The notes beneath the pieces were generated by a model. That model searched no databases, was not told the origin of the DNA, and worked only from the letters and a program-made list of their open reading frames with translations. Shown here piece after piece: positions 15,667-21,747 of a DNA stretch of 61,854 bases. Position 1 is the stretch's first letter, and each line of letters opens with the position of its first letter. This stretch comes from an uncultured Planctomycetia bacterium (GTDB lineage: Bacteria; Omnitrophota; Gorgyraeia; 2-02-FULL-51-18): the NCBI GenBank assembly GCA_964642015.1, contig CAZXLF010000005.1, positions 1 to 61,854 of the forward strand, read 5' to 3'. The translations under genes and the position numbers were made by a program.

Positions 15667-15799
15667 GGCGTCTCCTGATCGATTATGTTGACTGGATTAT
15701 ATTAACCGATACGGTCGCCTATTGTCCAACAACGGATATGCCCTGTATAATAGAGCTGTCTGTATAGGGATAAAAACACTCATTTCTATCTTTTATTTT

Positions 15800-16696
15800 A
15801 TGGCAAAAATCAAGACCACCCAAAATACCTACCCTTCACCCGAGCGCCAAACGCGTTGGGTCGGCATCATTTTTTTTATATTCATCCACATTGTCGGTAT
15901 CATCGGGACACCGCTCTATTTGATCTACCATGGGGTTACGCGTTCGGAATGGGTGCTCTTTGGATTTTATTTTTCACTCTCAACACTGGCCATCACCGTC
16001 GGTTATCATCGGCTATTCGCGCACGTCTCCTATAAAACCAATGCGTTCGTGCGTTTTATTTTACTTTTTTTCGGAGCGGCGACATTTGAACAGTCCGCTT
16101 TAAAATGGGCCTCCCAGCACCGTCAACATCATCAATTCACCGATACGGACCAGGATCCCTACAATATTAAGCGCGGATTCTGGTACGCTCATGTAGGCTG
16201 GATCTTATTTTGGAAACATCGTGTGAATTACGACAATGCGCGGGATCTGCAGAGATCAAAGCTTCTGATGAACCAGCATCATCTTTACACGCTGTGGTCT
16301 CTGGGAGCGGGCGTAGCGCTTCCGATACTGATCGGGGTCTGGATCGGGCATCCGCTAGGCGCGTTCATTATGGCCGTCAGTTTGAGGCTGATCCTCGTGA
16401 TGCATTCGGCATTTTTCATCAACTCCTGGGCACACATGTTCGGCAGTCAGGATTTTGATAAAAATATTTCAGCGAAGGATAATTGGTTCGGGGTTTTTCT
16501 GACAAACGGAGAAGGCTATCACAACTTCCATCATCGTTTTCCCAACGATTACCGCAACGGGATACGCTGGTTTGATTGGGATCCCAGCAAATGGGTGATC
16601 TTCGGATTATCGAAAATTCATTTCACTTGGGACCTTAAACGAACTCCCAAATCAAAAATGAGCCCGATTGAAAAAATAGCTGTCCAAAATCCTTAA
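15800..16696 (+). CDS. Membrane fatty-acid (acyl-CoA delta-9-like) desaturase
   Basis: Three His boxes HRLFAH, HRQHH, HNFHH; start set at ATG 15800 (ORF track gives 15722). Confidence 0.92.
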   Translation: MAKIKTTQNTYPSPERQTRWVGIIFFIFIHIVGIIGTPLYLIYHGVTRSEWVLFGFYFSLSTLAITVGYHRLFAHVSYKTNAFVRFILLFFGAATFEQSALKWASQHRQHHQFTDTDQDPYNIKRGFWYAHVGWILFWKHRVNYDNARDLQRSKLLMNQHHLYTLWSLGAGVALPILIGVWIGHPLGAFIMAVSLRLILVMHSAFFINSWAHMFGSQDFDKNISAKDNWFGVFLTNGEGYHNFHHRFPNDYRNGIRWFDWDPSKWVIFGLSKIHFTWDLKRTPKSKMSPIEKIAVQNP

Positions 16697-18717
16697 GCGA
16701 CGTCTTCTTTAAATTCAGATCCGTCCCAAATGATCCGTATTCTGAGCGCGCGTCCTTCTTTCGGACGCACCGCGCCCCATGCCAGAGCGATATGCTCCAT
16801 TTGGATCTCAGGATCGTATTTGCCTGACCTTCCAACGACCAGTTCTTCGGCTTCCAAATCATAAGCCACTCTGGCCATCGCGTAAAAAGGATCATTTGAC
16901 GGAACGTATAAAGGGATTACCGGATGGCCGATCTTCTCAGCTTCAGTGATGATCTTTGTGAATAAAACTTCCTCGTCTTTTGAGGTTTGGCTAAGGTCTC
17001 CTTCCAAATGTAGCCCTGTGGCCACCTTAGAAGTCATCACCACAACATCCGTGGTCTCTTCGTCAATCTCGGAGAGAGCTTTTGCCAAATGGGACAGATT
17101 ATTCGGATCACGCACCGCGACAAGAATACGTCTAGGTTTCTCACAACCGCAGTCTTTTGGATTCAACACATCAAGACGGTTTAGATTCACACGATCAATA
17201 TGCCCGCCATGATGCAGCGCGGTCATTTCGCTTTTATGTTTTTTCATATGGATCTTTTCTGAACCGACGAACACGATAAAAAAGACGACCGTGAAGATCA
17301 TTCCCGAAATCGTTGCAACCTGTTTAGTCACTAAATTGACAGAGGCGGTGAGAAAAAGTACCGCAAAGATCAAAGCCAGGCCGAACGGAAATTCTTTGCC
17401 GGCTATGCGAAGATTAAGCGGCACTTTCCATTCACGCGGCGTTTTGTCTTTATAACGCAATATCAGAACGGCCATTGATTTGAAAACGAAACTCCAGATC
17501 ACACCGAACGCGTACGCTTCTCCCAGCACGTAAATATTTCCCTGGCATAATAAAATCGTCAAAAGTTGAAGGATCACCGTCAGATCAATAAGCCGTGAAG
17601 AAGTACCATAACGCGGATGCGGTTTTCTTAAAAATTCCGGTAGAATCCCATCTTCTCCGAGACGGTTCAGCACGCCGTTAGAACCGATAATTGATGTATT
17701 TACCGCTCCGGCAAGGATCAGGAATCCCGTGAAAACCACGAACGCCTGGAACAAAAGCCGCAAAGACTCCGGTCCGATCAGATACATCGTGAGCCCGCTC
17801 AGCAGATTATCCGAATATTGACTCATGCGGACCGAATCCGGGATGATCATGATCGCAAAAAAACTGCCGAGCGCCGTTAAAAACAGGCAATACATAAAAA
17901 CGATGAAAGCGGCGCGTTTCAAATTTTTCAGCTTCGGCGCTTCGATCTCCCTGTAAACCTGCGCGAGTGTTTCTTCGCCGCTCATCGCCAAAAGTGAATG
18001 TCCGAACGCGATCGTGATGCCGATCACACCAAGCGGTTTGATACTGCCCTTCAGAGGATACAACCAACCCAGTGATTCCTTATTAAAAACCGGCGCAAAA
18101 GGAGGAAGATGCACGCCGCGCACCCACAACGTCGCAATGCTCCATATAATAATCATAACCGCCATAACTGTCGTGCAGGCCATGATCTTAAGCGCTTTGT
18201 CGCTGGATTCAGGAATGCCTTTCACATTCTGCCACCAAAAATAAACGGTCACTGCTAACGCGAATAAGACAGAAAACAGATTCGCCGGTAATTGCATAGA
18301 AACGTGAAAACGCGGCAGCGTGAGATTTAAAAGGCCGACGAGATATTGTCCCGCTGATACAGCGCTGATCGGTCCTGTCAAAACGTAATCAAACATCAGT
18401 GCCGACACGGAAAGTTTCGCAAGCGTACCTCCCATCGCTTCTTTCACGACCCGGTAAACGCCTCCGCGCACGAACATTCCGCAAGATTCAATGTAAATAG
18501 CACGGACCGCGTAAGCAAAAAGCATGACGCCGAGAATAAACCAAGGCGCTGCCTTGCCGATCGCATGTTCAGCGATGCCGCCGATGTAATAAACAGTCGA
18601 AGCGATATCGCATAGCACGATCGCGGCAGCGCGCCAAAAACTGATGAAAGTTAGCATCGCCGTCGTGACGAGAATAACGTTCGTCGATCTTCTTTTACTC
18701 GCAGCGATCTCCATCAA
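16693..18717 (-). CDS. APC-superfamily permease, KimA(YdaO)/KUP-like putative K+/H+ symporter with cytoplasmic C-terminal domain
   Basis: About 12 TM segments; CDIASTVYY, MFDYVLT and SGEETLAQ align by eye to KimA motifs; lies downstream of a c-di-AMP riboswitch. Confidence 0.75.
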   Translation of the reverse strand: MMEIAASKRRSTNVILVTTAMLTFISFWRAAAIVLCDIASTVYYIGGIAEHAIGKAAPWFILGVMLFAYAVRAIYIESCGMFVRGGVYRVVKEAMGGTLAKLSVSALMFDYVLTGPISAVSAGQYLVGLLNLTLPRFHVSMQLPANLFSVLFALAVTVYFWWQNVKGIPESSDKALKIMACTTVMAVMIIIWSIATLWVRGVHLPPFAPVFNKESLGWLYPLKGSIKPLGVIGITIAFGHSLLAMSGEETLAQVYREIEAPKLKNLKRAAFIVFMYCLFLTALGSFFAIMIIPDSVRMSQYSDNLLSGLTMYLIGPESLRLLFQAFVVFTGFLILAGAVNTSIIGSNGVLNRLGEDGILPEFLRKPHPRYGTSSRLIDLTVILQLLTILLCQGNIYVLGEAYAFGVIWSFVFKSMAVLILRYKDKTPREWKVPLNLRIAGKEFPFGLALIFAVLFLTASVNLVTKQVATISGMIFTVVFFIVFVGSEKIHMKKHKSEMTALHHGGHIDRVNLNRLDVLNPKDCGCEKPRRILVAVRDPNNLSHLAKALSEIDEETTDVVVMTSKVATGLHLEGDLSQTSKDEEVLFTKIITEAEKIGHPVIPLYVPSNDPFYAMARVAYDLEAEELVVGRSGKYDPEIQMEHIALAWGAVRPKEGRALRIRIIWDGSEFKEDVA

Positions 18718-19220
18718 ATGCCCTTTTCCGTTTCGCGGATCAGTTGGATGACCTGGTGGGAAGTTTTCAGGGCCGACAGGCCGCTTCCAAAACTTTCGTT
18801 CTGGAACAGCGAAGAAAGACTTGAAAGGAACAACAGATGATTTTTTGTGTCTTCTTTAGGGCTGAGGAAAAGGAAGAAAAAACGCGGTTCATCTTTCGGT
18901 GCCGAATCCCGGATGCCTAACGCCAACTGAATGGTCTGCAATCCTTTTAACCGAGCATGCGGTATCGAAATAGTGAAATCAATGATGGTGCTTCCCATCT
19001 TTTCTCTCTCCAAGACCGCGTTCAATGCCGGCGCATGATCGGCGATGGGCAGCGAACTGACTAATTTGAACAGAATTTCGTCTTTGGGAGCCTGTTCGGG
19101 AAAAAATAAAACGGAAGCTTCTGATAGATGATCCGAAATCAGAATTGTTTTGACTGAAGGCACCAGTGCCGCGCCATTTTTTTCTTCCATCCGGCCGTTT
19201 TTAAACCATTTCATGGTCAC
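18714..19220 (-). CDS. PTS EIIA (Ntr/Fru-type) domain protein
   Basis: VLEREKMGSTIIDFTISIPHARL with the conserved phospho-His; HLLFLSSLSSLF C-terminal motif. Confidence 0.85.
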   Translation of the reverse strand: MTMKWFKNGRMEEKNGAALVPSVKTILISDHLSEASVLFFPEQAPKDEILFKLVSSLPIADHAPALNAVLEREKMGSTIIDFTISIPHARLKGLQTIQLALGIRDSAPKDEPRFFFLFLSPKEDTKNHLLFLSSLSSLFQNESFGSGLSALKTSHQVIQLIRETEKGI

Positions 19221-19450
19221 ATCTCCGTGGCTGAGCGCAGTTCCTGCTTCAGCGCTTTCAAAAAATTGATATTCTCTTGTTCATGTTTTTCCAGTTTATC
19301 GACGATCGTGATCAATTTCTCACGTGCCGTACTCTTTTCATCTTCTTCAAGCATCGTGGATGGCGGAACTATCGCTTGGGCGGTCTTTGAGAAAACTCCC
19401 GCGATCAACAATAGAATGAAAAAAACTGTCACCATTTTTTTTGGTTTCAT
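19217..19450 (-). CDS. Small secreted protein with a helical C-terminus
   Basis: 77 aa; signal peptide ending AQA; overlaps the next gene by 4 bp (coupled). Confidence 0.6.
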   Translation of the reverse strand: MKPKKMVTVFFILLLIAGVFSKTAQAIVPPSTMLEEDEKSTAREKLITIVDKLEKHEQENINFLKALKQELRSATEM

Positions 19451-19481
19451 AAAATAAAATGCCAGAGAGCTGCTCTGGCAT
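19451..19481 (-). terminator. Intrinsic terminator, riboswitch expression platform
   Basis: ATGCCAGAG-cagct-CTCTGGCAT followed by TTTTATTTT, directly before ATG 19450. Confidence 0.8.
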
Positions 19482-19630
19482 CCTCTCTCAGTTTGTACGC
19501 TTACGAGGTTAGCTGTCGGACTCGGGCTTGAGTGGCCCTAATCTTTTTAAGATATTCGCCCCAAGACTGCAAGGCAGTCAAAACTGGGTTCCCCGCGTTT
19601 TCTTCTGATCAGGAAGAAATTCAGCCTATG
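19482..19630 (-). ncRNA. c-di-AMP riboswitch (ydaO/yuaA leader) no. 1
   Basis: Minus strand reads GCTGAAT..GCGGGGAACCCA..TTGGGGCGAAT..TAGGG..GCCCGAGTCCGACAGCTAACCTCGTAAGCG, matching the ydaO consensus. Confidence 0.93.
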
Positions 19631-19784
19631 AATTGCTTTTTTGATTAACCAACAGGATCTTTTTAACTGAAATTGCCTCCGGCCTGCTCAGCTTTATCGC
19701 CAAAAAAATAAATCCGGCGGCAGCCAAGACAGACAAGATGATCAAGATCGGTTTAAAAGATTCCATCTCCATAAATAGATCCAT
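19626..19784 (-). CDS. Putative 52-aa single-TM peptide, not in the ORF track
   Basis: MDLFMEMESFKPILIILSVLAAAGFIFLAIKLSRPEAISVKKILLVNQKSNS; its TAG abuts the riboswitch 5' end; no clear SD. Confidence 0.4.
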   Translation of the reverse strand: MDLFMEMESFKPILIILSVLAAAGFIFLAIKLSRPEAISVKKILLVNQKSNS

Positions 19785-19794
19785 CAACAATCAA

Positions 19795-19839
19795 AGTGTA
19801 CATGGAAAATAATCAAAACGTGAGTCAATAAAGCGTCAA
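19795..19839 (-). promoter_or_regulatory. Putative KdpE-activated promoter
   Basis: TTGAC direct repeat with 11-bp period (19835-19839, 19824-19828) directly upstream of a poor -35, and a TACACT -10 at 19795-19800. Confidence 0.45.
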
Positions 19840-19864
19840 AAATAGGATAGGGGGAAAAGCAGGC

Positions 19865-20566
19865 TTATTCGTCAGTATGAAGGCGGTAACCAACGCCTGG
19901 TTCCGTTAAAACATAAGAAGGCCTGTCAGGATTGGGCTCTATTTTATCGCGAAGATTGCTAATGGTGACGCGCAGAAGATGGGAAACGCCTTCTAGATCT
20001 TCAGTTTTATTCCAGACTTCCTGCAAGATATGCCGGCGCGTGACCACTTTTCCGGCGTTCATCGTCAACACTTTCAAAACATTATATTCGGTCGGCGTGA
20101 GGCGCACTGCCTTTCCATTCACCTCGACTTGATGTTTGGAGATGTCGATGGACACTTTGCCGATGTTATAAAGCGTTTTTTCGTCCTTGGGCACGAGCCT
20201 TCTCATCACCGCTCTTAAACGTGCTAATAATTCCCCTTCACCGAAAGGCTTTGTCAAATAGTCATCGGCGCCGGCATCCAGCGCGGCGATCTTGTCTGAT
20301 TCATCTTCTCTGACGGACAAGATCACAATGGGTGTCTTGGTCCTTTGCCGGATCTTGCGCGTGATGTCTATGCCATTGGCATCAGGAAGCCCAAGATCCA
20401 AAATGATCGCATCAGGATGAGATGAAACAGATTCATTCAGCGCCTCCTCCCCGTTGGACGCTTCAAAAACACCGTAACCGTGAGAGGAAAGTATTGCTTT
20501 GAGATATCGTCTGATCGATCTTTCATCGTCCACAACCAAGATCCTCAGTCCAGATTCCGCATCCAT
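19865..20566 (-). CDS. kdpE: KdpE-like OmpR-family response regulator
   Basis: ILVVDDE, ILDLGLPD, AGADDYLTKPF, LTPTEY, PDRPSYVLTEPGVGYRL. Confidence 0.9.
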   Translation of the reverse strand: MDAESGLRILVVDDERSIRRYLKAILSSHGYGVFEASNGEEALNESVSSHPDAIILDLGLPDANGIDITRKIRQRTKTPIVILSVREDESDKIAALDAGADDYLTKPFGEGELLARLRAVMRRLVPKDEKTLYNIGKVSIDISKHQVEVNGKAVRLTPTEYNVLKVLTMNAGKVVTRRHILQEVWNKTEDLEGVSHLLRVTISNLRDKIEPNPDRPSYVLTEPGVGYRLHTDE

Positions 20567-21595
20567 TTATTCCCCTTTCGCTGTCGGTAAAACAACGGCC
20601 AGCGTCGTGCCTTTGTCGGAATTATTTTGCGCCCAGATATATCCTCCGTGTGCTTCGACGATCCCTTTGCAGATCGACAGACCCAAGCCTGTGCCGGTGA
20701 TTTGATTAGGTTTCACAGCGCGGTAAAATTTATCAAAAATCCTCTGCAGGTCCTCTTTGGGAACACCAAAACCTTCATCTTTTATCTCCACTTTCACAGC
20801 GTTTTGCATCAGTTCGGATCTGATCTCTATCGGTGCGTCCGGCGGAGAATACTTGATGGCATTATCGATCAAATTAATGAACACACGCATCATCAGATGA
20901 TAATCGACCCGCACTTCGGGAAAATCGTGCGGGATGTGAATACGAACCTCGCGTTTTCCTATTTTGTCATTCAATTGCTGCAACGAAGCGCCGAGGAGGT
21001 CTCGCAATTCACAAGAACGAAGATGTGCCTGCAAAGTGCCCGCCTCGATCCGTGTCATGTCCAAAAGATTTCCAACTAGCCGGTTCAAGCGGTCCGAGTC
21101 TTCATAGGCCGTTTCAAGGATCTCTTTTCGAGTTGAGTCATTCATCGAAGATTCCTGCAAAAGACTGCTGAGAGCTCCGGTGATCGAAACAAGCGGTGTC
21201 CGCAGATCATGAGAAATAGAACTCAAAAGTGCCGTTTGCAATTTTTCCGTTTCACGGCGGATCGTCTGCTCTCTCACTTTCGATGCCAGCGTACTGATCA
21301 CGATACCGACGATCAAAAGAACTGCAAAAGTAAAAATGTATTTAACATCATCTACCGTGAACGCAAAATAAGGGGGCACCAGAAAAAAATCGAAAGCCAA
21401 CAGACTTAAAATCGACGTCGTGATCGCCGGTCCCTGGCCCCACCAAATAGCCGAAACGACTACGGCCAAAAGATAGAACATCACCAGATTCGTGGGTTCG
21501 AGGTCTTTTTTGATAAATTCGCCAAAAGCGGTCGTCAGGATCACAAGGCTGGCGCTGACCAGATAGGGATAAAAATGGGAGAACTTATTTTTCAG
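20567..21595 (-). CDS. kdpD: KdpD-like histidine kinase lacking the N-terminal KdpD, USP and GAF domains (DUF4118-HisKA-HATPase)
   Basis: FDFFLVPPYFAF TM motif, SISHDLRTPL, NLIDNAIKYS, GTGLGLSI; in-frame CTG 21595 follows an AAGGAGG SD (ORF track start is 21544). Confidence 0.85.
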   Translation of the reverse strand: MKNKFSHFYPYLVSASLVILTTAFGEFIKKDLEPTNLVMFYLLAVVVSAIWWGQGPAITTSILSLLAFDFFLVPPYFAFTVDDVKYIFTFAVLLIVGIVISTLASKVREQTIRRETEKLQTALLSSISHDLRTPLVSITGALSSLLQESSMNDSTRKEILETAYEDSDRLNRLVGNLLDMTRIEAGTLQAHLRSCELRDLLGASLQQLNDKIGKREVRIHIPHDFPEVRVDYHLMMRVFINLIDNAIKYSPPDAPIEIRSELMQNAVKVEIKDEGFGVPKEDLQRIFDKFYRAVKPNQITGTGLGLSICKGIVEAHGGYIWAQNNSDKGTTLAVVLPTAKGE

Positions 21596-21713
21596 GAATT
21601 CCTCCTTGCCTGCGGGGTTAGCTGACGGGCTGCGTCGAGGATGAGATCGCTTACCTGCGGTAATTCGCCCCTAAACCTTGGTTCCCCCGGTCCTTTCGGA
21701 TTCGGCTTTTGAA
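21596..21713 (-). ncRNA. c-di-AMP riboswitch (ydaO/yuaA leader) no. 2
   Basis: Minus strand reads GCCGAATCCGAAAGGACCGGGGGAACCA..TAGGGGCGAAT..GCCCGTCAGCTAACCCCGCAGGC and then the AAGGAGG SD. Confidence 0.93.
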
Positions 21714-21719
21714 AAAGGA

Positions 21720-21747
21720 ATTATACGCTTGCTTTAAGGAATGTCAA
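21720..21747 (-). promoter_or_regulatory. Consensus sigma70 promoter of the riboswitch-kdpD-kdpE unit
   Basis: TTGACA(21742-21747)-16 nt-TATAAT(21720-21725). Confidence 0.75.

Follow-up and report, generated by a model that had tools for sequence, protein, structure and literature searches.

A putative two-layer potassium-uptake switch of c-di-AMP riboswitches, a kinase-only KdpD with KdpE and a distantly KimA-like permease in an Omnitrophota genome

In Escherichia coli K+ homeostasis is subject to PTS-Ntr control, a function of the phosphotransferase system (PTS) in which EIIA-Ntr binds both KdpD and TrkA. The N-terminal domain of KdpD is an atypical serine kinase of KdpB (PMC11018627), and in Bacillus thuringiensis a kdpD gene without the histidine-kinase part, and with no accompanying kdpE, has kdpFABC as its target (PMC6488665). 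In KimA (YdaO) the K+ site is formed by D36, Y43, T121, S125, T230 and Y377, D117 being the residue of the cytoplasmic tunnel and of trans-inhibition and E233 that of proton coupling (PMC6994465, PMC10284832). Here we describe a cassette of riboswitches for cyclic di-AMP (c-di-AMP), kdpDE-type genes and a transporter operon, which lies in a stretch of 61,854 nucleotides (the window) from an uncultured bacterium of the Omnitrophota. The window lies on contig CAZXLF010000005.1 of a 2.21 Mb genome in 14 contigs (GCA_964642015.1) which is 98.8% complete.

On the minus strand the cassette runs from a promoter through riboswitch 1, a short kdpD, kdpE, a candidate KdpE box, an upstream open reading frame (uORF), riboswitch 2 and a 77-aa gene to the genes for an EIIA protein and a permease. 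It holds two c-di-AMP aptamers, a kinase-only KdpD paired with KdpE, and an operon for a small exported protein, EIIA and the permease, in a genome without Kdp, Trk/Ktr and Kup. We consider a two-layer potassium-uptake switch to be the best explanation of this arrangement, and on balance a probable one. The features, in the order of transcription, are:

21720..21747, minus strand: sigma-70 promoter of the kdpDE leader, TTGACA-16-TATAAT (12/12 consensus matches)
21597..21717, minus strand: c-di-AMP riboswitch 1 (RF00379; 66.1 bits, E 4e-13)
20567..21595, minus strand: short KdpD, about 342 aa from CTG 21595, with a DUF4118 domain of four transmembrane (TM) helices, HisKA and HATPase_c (Pfam, NCBIfam)
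19865..20566, minus strand: KdpE-type response regulator, 233 aa, receiver and Trans_reg_C domains
19823..19839, minus strand: candidate KdpE box, direct repeat TTGACGCTTTATTGACT with an 11-bp period
19626..19784, minus strand: uORF of 52 aa with a single TM segment, its stop codon abutting the 5' edge of riboswitch 2
19482..19636, minus strand: c-di-AMP riboswitch 2 (RF00379; 73.7 bits, E 3e-15)
19447..19484, minus strand: intrinsic terminator of riboswitch 2, a 12-bp stem followed by UUUUAUUUU
19217..19450, minus strand: open reading frame (ORF) for a 77-aa protein with a signal peptide and a charged helical tail
18714..19220, minus strand: PtsN-like EIIA (EIIA_2, PF00359; Pfam 58 bits)
16693..18714, minus strand: APC-superfamily permease of 673/674 aa with a Usp-like C-terminal cytoplasmic domain (PF13520, 167 bits)

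The permease and the potassium genes of its genome

The genome's true KimA scores only as AA_permease_2, and neither NCBIfam nor Pfam holds a KimA-specific model, so that no curated membership test exists. Alignment of the window's permease with the genome's KimA by hhalign gave a probability of 91.5% (E 8.5e-7) over 559 columns, the C-terminal domain included; in the control, another APC permease of the same genome, it was 4% over 28 columns. The equivalents of the KimA K+ site are D37, Y44, T114, S118, S246 and Y402, those of D117 and E233 are D110 and E249, and none of the eight varies in any of 87 family members (48-89% identity), which represent several phyla. The first TM helix (TM1) carries CDIASTVYY and not a glycine-rich loop. 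A GxG motif, the carboxylate-binding loop of TM1, is typical of amino-acid APC carriers. An AlphaFold2 model of the permease consists of a LeuT-fold core and a C-terminal cytoplasmic domain of nucleotide-binding type, and in a Foldseek search with this model the KimA structures 8B70, 8B71 and 6S3K took ranks 1, 2 and 8 with ~660 columns aligned, amino-acid carriers coming further down the list. The permease is distantly KimA-like, not KimA in the narrow sense, and K+ transport is predicted for it.

The C-terminal domain matches Usp weakly (E 0.012), the match rising above threshold in the homologue P0119. Binding of c-di-AMP by the permease protein was also considered. The c-di-AMP contact R337 of KimA aligns with E or D in the permease family, and the c-di-AMP motif of the KdpD Usp domain, (A/G/C)xSxSxxN(Y/F) (PMC8214093), is not present in the C-terminal domain, which reads AVRDPNNL; with neither motif in place, we make no claim of such binding.

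The most serious alternative to a K+ importer is one of an organic osmolyte or amino acid (e.g. glutamate, proline or polyamine). The cassette would then be an osmotic-stress module which only resembles K+ regulons, since osmotic state acts on c-di-AMP as well as on KdpDE; carriers of osmolytes are found in c-di-AMP regulons, too. Pfam and NCBIfam class the permease only among amino-acid permease families and the source records name it 'amino acid transporter', but all of the KimA K+ and H+ residues are invariant in the 87 members, and TM1 has an aspartate where amino-acid carriers have the GxG motif. Similarly, while the TM core of GkApcT, LAT and ApcT superposes on the permease with a higher TM-score than KimA, the similarity to KimA extends over the full length, C-terminal domain included, and is not shared by the genome's other APC permease. 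The family furthermore recurs beside KdpDE and kdpA, as described below. On this evidence we regard import of an organic solute as unlikely.

No KdpA, KdpC, KdpD N-domain (PF02702), TrkH/KtrB or Kup was found in the genome, which bears out the absence of kdpFABC proposed in a first-pass annotation made from the sequence alone; the same inventory of kdpABC and diadenylate cyclase genes returned one cyclase (DAC). A third RF00379 match, on contig C6, precedes the true KimA (E 1.4e-60 to PDB 6S3K), and all three riboswitches of the genome are therefore attached to K+-related genes. A second KimA paralogue (KimA2), which sits in an amtB-glnK operon, lies 9 kb from the first, and between the two KimA genes there is a second kinase-only KdpD (374 aa) with its KdpE, 56% and 69% identical, respectively, to the window's pair. 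Adjacent to this pair are genes for a ClC channel, a PII protein and an APC permease that carries a fused PII part. Apart from the KimA type and the window's permease, no K+ importer can be recognised in the genome.

The C6 island as a whole (C6:74440-87675; loci L094 and L001) contains KimA2, glnK, amtB, a LexA-like regulator, KdpD/KdpE, PII, the APC-PII fusion and the ClC channel. The third riboswitch and KimA1 are transcribed divergently from the other genes of the island, and the transporter genes stand ahead of kdpDE, as in kdpFABC-kdpDE.

Leaders, regulators and EIIA

The Rfam scan of the window was read against a gathering score of 38 bits for RF00379. Both matches span model positions 1-134, i.e. 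the full model, and they lie 2.1 kb apart on the minus strand; only three matches occur genome-wide. The first-pass annotation had placed two ydaO-type riboswitches within ~2.2 kb, and at 66.1 and 73.7 bits both leaders indeed score as c-di-AMP riboswitches, each with an OFF-type expression platform. Both also occur in a related genome (G069), as does the consensus promoter of the kdpDE leader.

In the minimum-energy fold of riboswitch 1 the 5' leader UUCCUUUUU pairs with the Shine-Dalgarno sequence AAGGAGGAA, lengthening P1. The same pairing is found in the G069 orthologue with other bases (UUCC/GGAA versus UAAUCC/GGAUUA), which suggests that riboswitch 1 is a probable translational OFF switch with a predicted response to c-di-AMP. 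The aptamer leads directly into the Shine-Dalgarno AGGAGG (21606-21601), leaving no space for a terminator ahead of the kdpD start, and a CTG codon (21595) follows 5 nt after it. The first canonical start in the ORF list is GTG 21544, upstream of which the reading frame remains open; a start there would cost the protein 17 residues which the G069 orthologue shares. Since the orthologue has an ATG exactly at the position of CTG 21595, this codon, and not GTG 21544, is most likely the start of kdpD.

Riboswitch 2, ~90% identical to the G069 copy as judged by eye, ends in the 12-bp terminator stem and its UUUUAUUUU tract, an expression platform which marks it as a predicted transcriptional OFF switch. 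Between the putative KdpE-dependent promoter and this riboswitch lies the uORF, whose stop codon is 1-4 nt ahead of the aptamer P1. The uORF has been kept as a protein in G069 (48% identity over 50 aa), the changes in the TM stretch being mostly at third positions and a 6-nt indel being in frame. A ribosome terminating on the uORF would cover the 5' strand of P1, and its translation could therefore interfere with the folding of riboswitch 2.

The short KdpD scores 98 (DUF4118), 61 (HisKA) and 100 bits (HATPase_c) with Pfam, and the domain scan of the protein revealed no KdpD N-domain (PF02702), no Usp and no GAF. Only ~7 residues separate DUF4118 (2-96) from HisKA (103-169), which leaves the protein without a GAF domain. 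In the PDB the short KdpD matches best the kinase core (6LGQ_C) and the four-helix TM domain (2KSF) of KdpD. By its sequence the response regulator clearly belongs with KdpE: it matches E. coli KdpE [4KNY] with 206 bits, the next regulator being MtrA with 152 bits, and its best NCBIfam model is KdpE (NF007820) with 228.6 bits, which falls short of the equivalog cut-off (325). The pair had been described as truncated KdpD/KdpE; more exactly, KdpD is reduced to its histidine-kinase half (membrane plus kinase domains), and the KdpE type is confirmed. The classical KdpE target, kdpFABC, has neither kdpA nor kdpC anywhere in the genome.

A candidate for another target is the 17-mer TTGACGCTTTATTGACT, composed of two TTGAC half-sites 11 bp apart (consensus TTGACGCyTTmTTGACT) and situated 22 nt upstream of a -10-like hexamer, TACACT (19800-19795). 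It is conserved at 16/17 positions in G069, where the flanks have diverged, and at 15/17, as TTGACGCCTTCTTGACT, directly upstream of the permease in locus L005, in which kdpE directly precedes the permease with neither riboswitch nor EIIA between. The exact 17-mer is a single copy in the genome, and no copy stands near the K+ genes on contig C6. In two Acidobacteriota loci the kdpE-permease spacer holds different repeats of the same period: L075 has three copies of TTTTTAGG at 11 bp, which we take to be similar to the operator of KdpE in E. coli, and L084 has two of TCTTAATGCC, a 10-nt direct repeat without mismatch, again with an 11-bp period. Direct repeats of 11 bp are the expected signature of binding sites of the OmpR/PhoB family, and the 17-mer is on these grounds a candidate site.

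As proposed in the first-pass annotation, the operon behind riboswitch 2 encodes a small secreted protein, a PTS EIIA and an APC permease, recognised by the signal peptide, PF00359 and PF13520, respectively. The 77-aa protein matches no Pfam or NCBIfam family, and has a homologue (47% identical) at the same position in G069. EIIA, the true start of which is probably ATG 19214 (MKWF...), finds its best NCBIfam and PDB matches in PtsN / EIIA-Ntr, although the score against NCBIfam PtsN (TIGR01419), 46.8 bits, is under the equivalog cut-off of 138.7. The phosphorylatable histidine lies in an IPHAR motif and is kept in 8/8 permease-linked homologues. Five of these, in L009, L026, L027, L047 and L098, are encoded directly upstream of the permease and share an MxWF N-terminus and the PHAR histidine; the permease-linked subfamily was found in Elusimicrobiota metagenome-assembled genomes (MAGs), in a metagenome contig and in G069. 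A canonical-looking EIIA (C2:41239-41682; Pfam 138 bits), to which the window's is 28% identical, is present elsewhere in the genome, as is HPr (101.6 bits at C2:45043), behind which lies an EI-like ORF, identified from its sequence by eye and not by a model score. With the histidine kept and HPr and an EI-like gene at hand, the suggested PTS input is possible. The EIIA gene appears to be translationally coupled to that of the permease.

Two further observations concern the surroundings. The stop codons of the permease gene and of a convergent fatty-acid desaturase gene (15722-16696, plus strand) overlap by 4 nt (16693-16696), and there is consequently no space for a terminator between them. 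On contig C1, at ~60-88 kb (L092, L093), two weak HPr-like matches fall inside an ORF of 14,048 aa, a would-be giant gene.

In the model that we propose, high c-di-AMP would signal a K+-replete cell. Riboswitch 1 would then hold the kdpD Shine-Dalgarno sequence in the extended P1 helix, so that neither KdpD nor KdpE would be made, and riboswitch 2 would stop transcription ahead of the transporter operon. At low c-di-AMP the consensus promoter would drive the expression of kdpDE; with its membrane domain as sensor, and EIIA or the transporter as possible further inputs, KdpD would phosphorylate KdpE, and KdpE~P on the TTGACGCTTTATTGACT repeat would activate the weak promoter behind the box. The transcript would pass through riboswitch 2, giving the 77-aa exported protein, EIIA and the permease from overlapping and probably translationally coupled genes. 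The permease would act as a proton-coupled K+ importer of a distant KimA-like family, while EI and HPr would phosphorylate EIIA, and EIIA might then adjust the activity of the permease or of KdpD, much as EIIA-Ntr of E. coli tunes TrkA and KdpD. Computation shows the sequence features, the content of domains, the genes that are absent, the synteny and the conserved residues; what is transported and in which direction, whether KdpE binds, how the switches work and what EIIA does are the parts of this model that we infer.

The permease family in other genomes and the weighing of the evidence

More than 8000 candidate proteins of the permease family carry no other name than 'APC family permease' or 'amino acid transporter'. 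In species-representative genomes there are at least 587 loci, distributed over Acidobacteriota, Binatia, Deltaproteobacteria-like lineages, Elusimicrobiota, Ignavibacteriota, Bacteroidota and Planctomycetota, and the neighbourhoods of about 86 loci were viewed. A survey of this kind had been proposed in the first-pass annotation, and it shows that short KdpD/KdpE, EIIA and RF00379 recur beside the permease in other phyla. A short DUF4118 kinase and a KdpE-like regulator accompany it in L005, L048, L052, L059, L071, L075, L077 and L084. The kinases have 384-520 aa, with or without GAF and never with the KdpD N-domain, and the regulators are 41-71% identical over their full length; gene orders vary. 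EIIA is encoded directly upstream on the same strand in seven loci (L009, L012, L013, L026, L027, L047, L098), and RF00379 stands directly upstream of the permease in nine (L007, L031, L033, L036, L038, L057, L059, L073 and, weakly, L060). Seven of these genomes were scanned whole, and in five of the seven it is the sole c-di-AMP riboswitch. One riboswitch stands at the head of permease-kdpD-kdpE in L059. The recurrence of KdpDE makes the permease a habitual companion of the kinase-only pair, and the window's copy appears to be the sole survivor of that partnership in its genome.

The cassette is patchy in its own lineage, where only 2/61 genomes of the same class, the window's and G069, have the permease. 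G069 keeps the entire cassette: both riboswitches, KdpD (63% identity), KdpE (83%), the uORF (48%), the small protein (47%), EIIA (63%) and the permease (89%). The permease-KdpDE group has kdpA no further than ~10 kb away in three Acidobacteriota genomes, and four others are without kdpA, calls of the latter kind being limited by the incompleteness of MAGs. The first-pass annotation had KdpDE drive a secondary K+/H+ symporter instead of Kdp. This fits the Kdp-less genome and does not hold for the module in general, since in some Acidobacteriota the same permease and short KdpDE are found beside kdpA; 'instead of Kdp' thus describes this genome only.

Some loci are unusual in their arrangement. 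In a 'Candidatus Angelobacter' MAG (L084:814-8130) two copies of the permease flank a short KdpD/KdpE pair. The kdpE-permease spacer of a Pyrinomonadaceae MAG (L052:5475-5600) contains at least 4 AGTGAAC heptamers and then ~8 inverted copies, GTTCACT, the whole forming a long inverted array of short repeats. An Acidobacteriota cation island (L075:776-11160) comprises, from one end to the other, a short KdpD with GAF, KdpE, the permease, MgtE, NhaA (on the opposite strand), an OmpL-like porin and kdpA. Another pair of riboswitches, 3.8 kb apart in the Thermodesulfobacteriota MAG G035, was rejected as an example of this cassette, one of them preceding kdpABC and the other a different APC permease. 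In that locus (L099, G035:C198:19000-32000) a 533-aa permease with weak similarity to KimA and to the window's permease follows the latter riboswitch and is itself followed by a TrkA-like gene; small membrane proteins stand with kdpABC behind the former.

Several observations weigh against the two-layer potassium-uptake switch. Neither phmmer nor a 26-sequence family profile finds a significant match to the permease in the PDB, 6S3K included, and its placement consequently rests on hhalign, residue conservation and the predicted fold. At 22% identity to the genome's KimA the relationship is a distant one; the first-pass name of KimA-like transporter is upheld by the retained K+/H+ residues and by KimA as the best structural match, but not in any closer sense. 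Whereas seven of the site residues align exactly, D37 comes out one residue off KimA D36 in automated alignments, the spacing from D37 to Y44 being 7 residues, identical to that between D36 and Y43. The AlphaFold2 model is of moderate quality (pLDDT, the predicted local distance difference test, 72), and cation-chloride cotransporters score almost as high as KimA in Foldseek. The genome also has true KimA genes, and the second KdpDE pair on C6 could cross-talk with that of the window. The pair TTGAC-N6-TTGAC is not enriched genome-wide (7 found, 5.6 expected), for which reason the case for the box rests on its conservation across loci and on the uniqueness of the full 17-mer. The 22 nt between box and -10 hexamer match no standard promoter, and as no terminator follows kdpE, read-through from the kdpDE promoter may suffice. 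Lastly, about 70% of the family loci have none of the three partners.

Some of these points also serve the view that KdpDE and the transporter operon are mere neighbours, the pair controlling other genes and the riboswitches alone the permease. In some pathogens genes other than kdp are regulated by KdpDE, the pair is missing from many of the family's loci, and KdpE binding at the box is a prediction for a half-site pair that is not enriched. Yet among 80 loci of the family KdpDE adjoins the permease in ~10%, in more than one phylum and with the genes variously ordered, where by our own estimate chance would bring a single-copy pair of genes next to it in ~0.1%; and the 17-nt box, single in its genome, is found in three loci, in one of which kdpE directly precedes the permease. 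Mere proximity is in our judgement improbable, and more so than the import of an organic solute. The least likely of the alternatives is that the permease carries another small cation (NH4+, Na+, Cs+) or exports K+, with KdpDE and c-di-AMP control as part of a general cation balance: by our reasoning NH4+ or Rb+ could fit a site of the KimA type, KimA2 is in the amtB-glnK operon and Acidobacteriota loci also hold MgtE and NhaA, but both riboswitch platforms are OFF at high c-di-AMP, the logic of an importer at low K+, and E249, the counterpart of the KimA proton-coupling residue, is invariant.

Beyond the two-layer potassium-uptake switch of this genome, a broader proposal may be put forward tentatively, as one that we find possible and would not yet call probable. 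The permease clade with the Usp-like tail may constitute a phylum-spanning class of proton-coupled K+ importers related to KimA, and a second target, in pump-less genomes the only one, of kinase-only KdpD and KdpE. In the present lineage this might have become a coherent AND gate with two RNA-level inputs from c-di-AMP, one on the sensor and one on the effector, and with EIIA as a brake at the protein level and the uORF coupling ribosome traffic to riboswitch folding. If this is true, a function could be given to thousands of genes of Acidobacteriota, Binatia, Elusimicrobiota, Planctomycetota, Omnitrophota and other groups which now bear only the label 'APC family permease' or 'amino acid transporter'. 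KdpDE would not be tied to the Kdp pump, its kinase half and KdpE having been re-aimed at a secondary carrier, and the serine-kinase half of KdpD would disappear along with its substrate KdpB. The cassette would also provide a compact natural example of one second messenger gating a regulator and the operon it regulates through two riboswitches with different mechanisms. Its main value lies in a testable functional assignment for a very large transporter family, and in a case of KdpDE re-targeting.

Comparison with described systems

The search of full-text literature found no account of the cassette, in keeping with the initial impression that the combination had not been described: neither the permease family as a K+ carrier, nor a secondary carrier as the target of KdpDE in a genome that lacks the pump, nor the double-riboswitch arrangement was encountered there.

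KimA of Bacillus subtilis [6S3K, 8B70], the best structural match, shares with the window's permease the LeuT-fold followed by a C-terminal Rossmann-like cytoplasmic domain, the residues of the K+ site and of proton coupling, and an OFF-type c-di-AMP riboswitch in the leader. In contrast to a KimA, the permease has ~22% identity to the genome's own KimA and no HMMER match even with the family profile, its C-terminal domain scores as Usp-like and R337 is replaced by E/D. Bona fide KimA paralogues coexist with it in the genome, and its operon, which stands beside KdpDE, also encodes EIIA and the small exported protein.

With the KdpDE-kdpFABC system of E. coli the window's pair has in common the DUF4118 four-helix membrane domain and the DHp and CA domains, an OmpR-family regulator of the KdpE type, and a direct-repeat operator, here a candidate one, with an 11-bp period. 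It differs in that there is no KdpFABC target, no GAF in the window's KdpD, and no N-terminal KdpD/Usp serine-kinase half anywhere in the genome. The loss of that half fits the absence of KdpB and is logical, because its target is not in the genome. Silberberg et al. (2024) surveyed only species with the pump (PMC11018627), and the kinases consisting of TM, GAF and DHp/CA parts that they describe come from such pump-bearing species, where they are paired with a separate serine-kinase chain.

The kdpD-kdpFABC locus of Bacillus thuringiensis (PMC6488665) likewise has a c-di-AMP riboswitch ahead of a kdpD-type gene, and K+ uptake is OFF at high c-di-AMP. Here, however, it is the opposite half of KdpD that remains, KdpE accompanies it, and the proposed target, a secondary carrier, stands behind a second riboswitch of its own. 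As in PTS-Ntr, there is a PtsN-like EIIA with the conserved histidine, EI and HPr are in the genome and the EIIA gene is linked to K+ genes; unlike in PTS-Ntr, the window's EIIA is an additional and divergent copy (28% identity with the canonical one on C2), its gene appears to be coupled to that of the permease, and its subfamily travels with the permease. The components are individually of known kinds, namely the ydaO riboswitch with KimA, KdpDE, PTS-Ntr and a riboswitch ahead of kdpD, and it is their combination that appears to be new.

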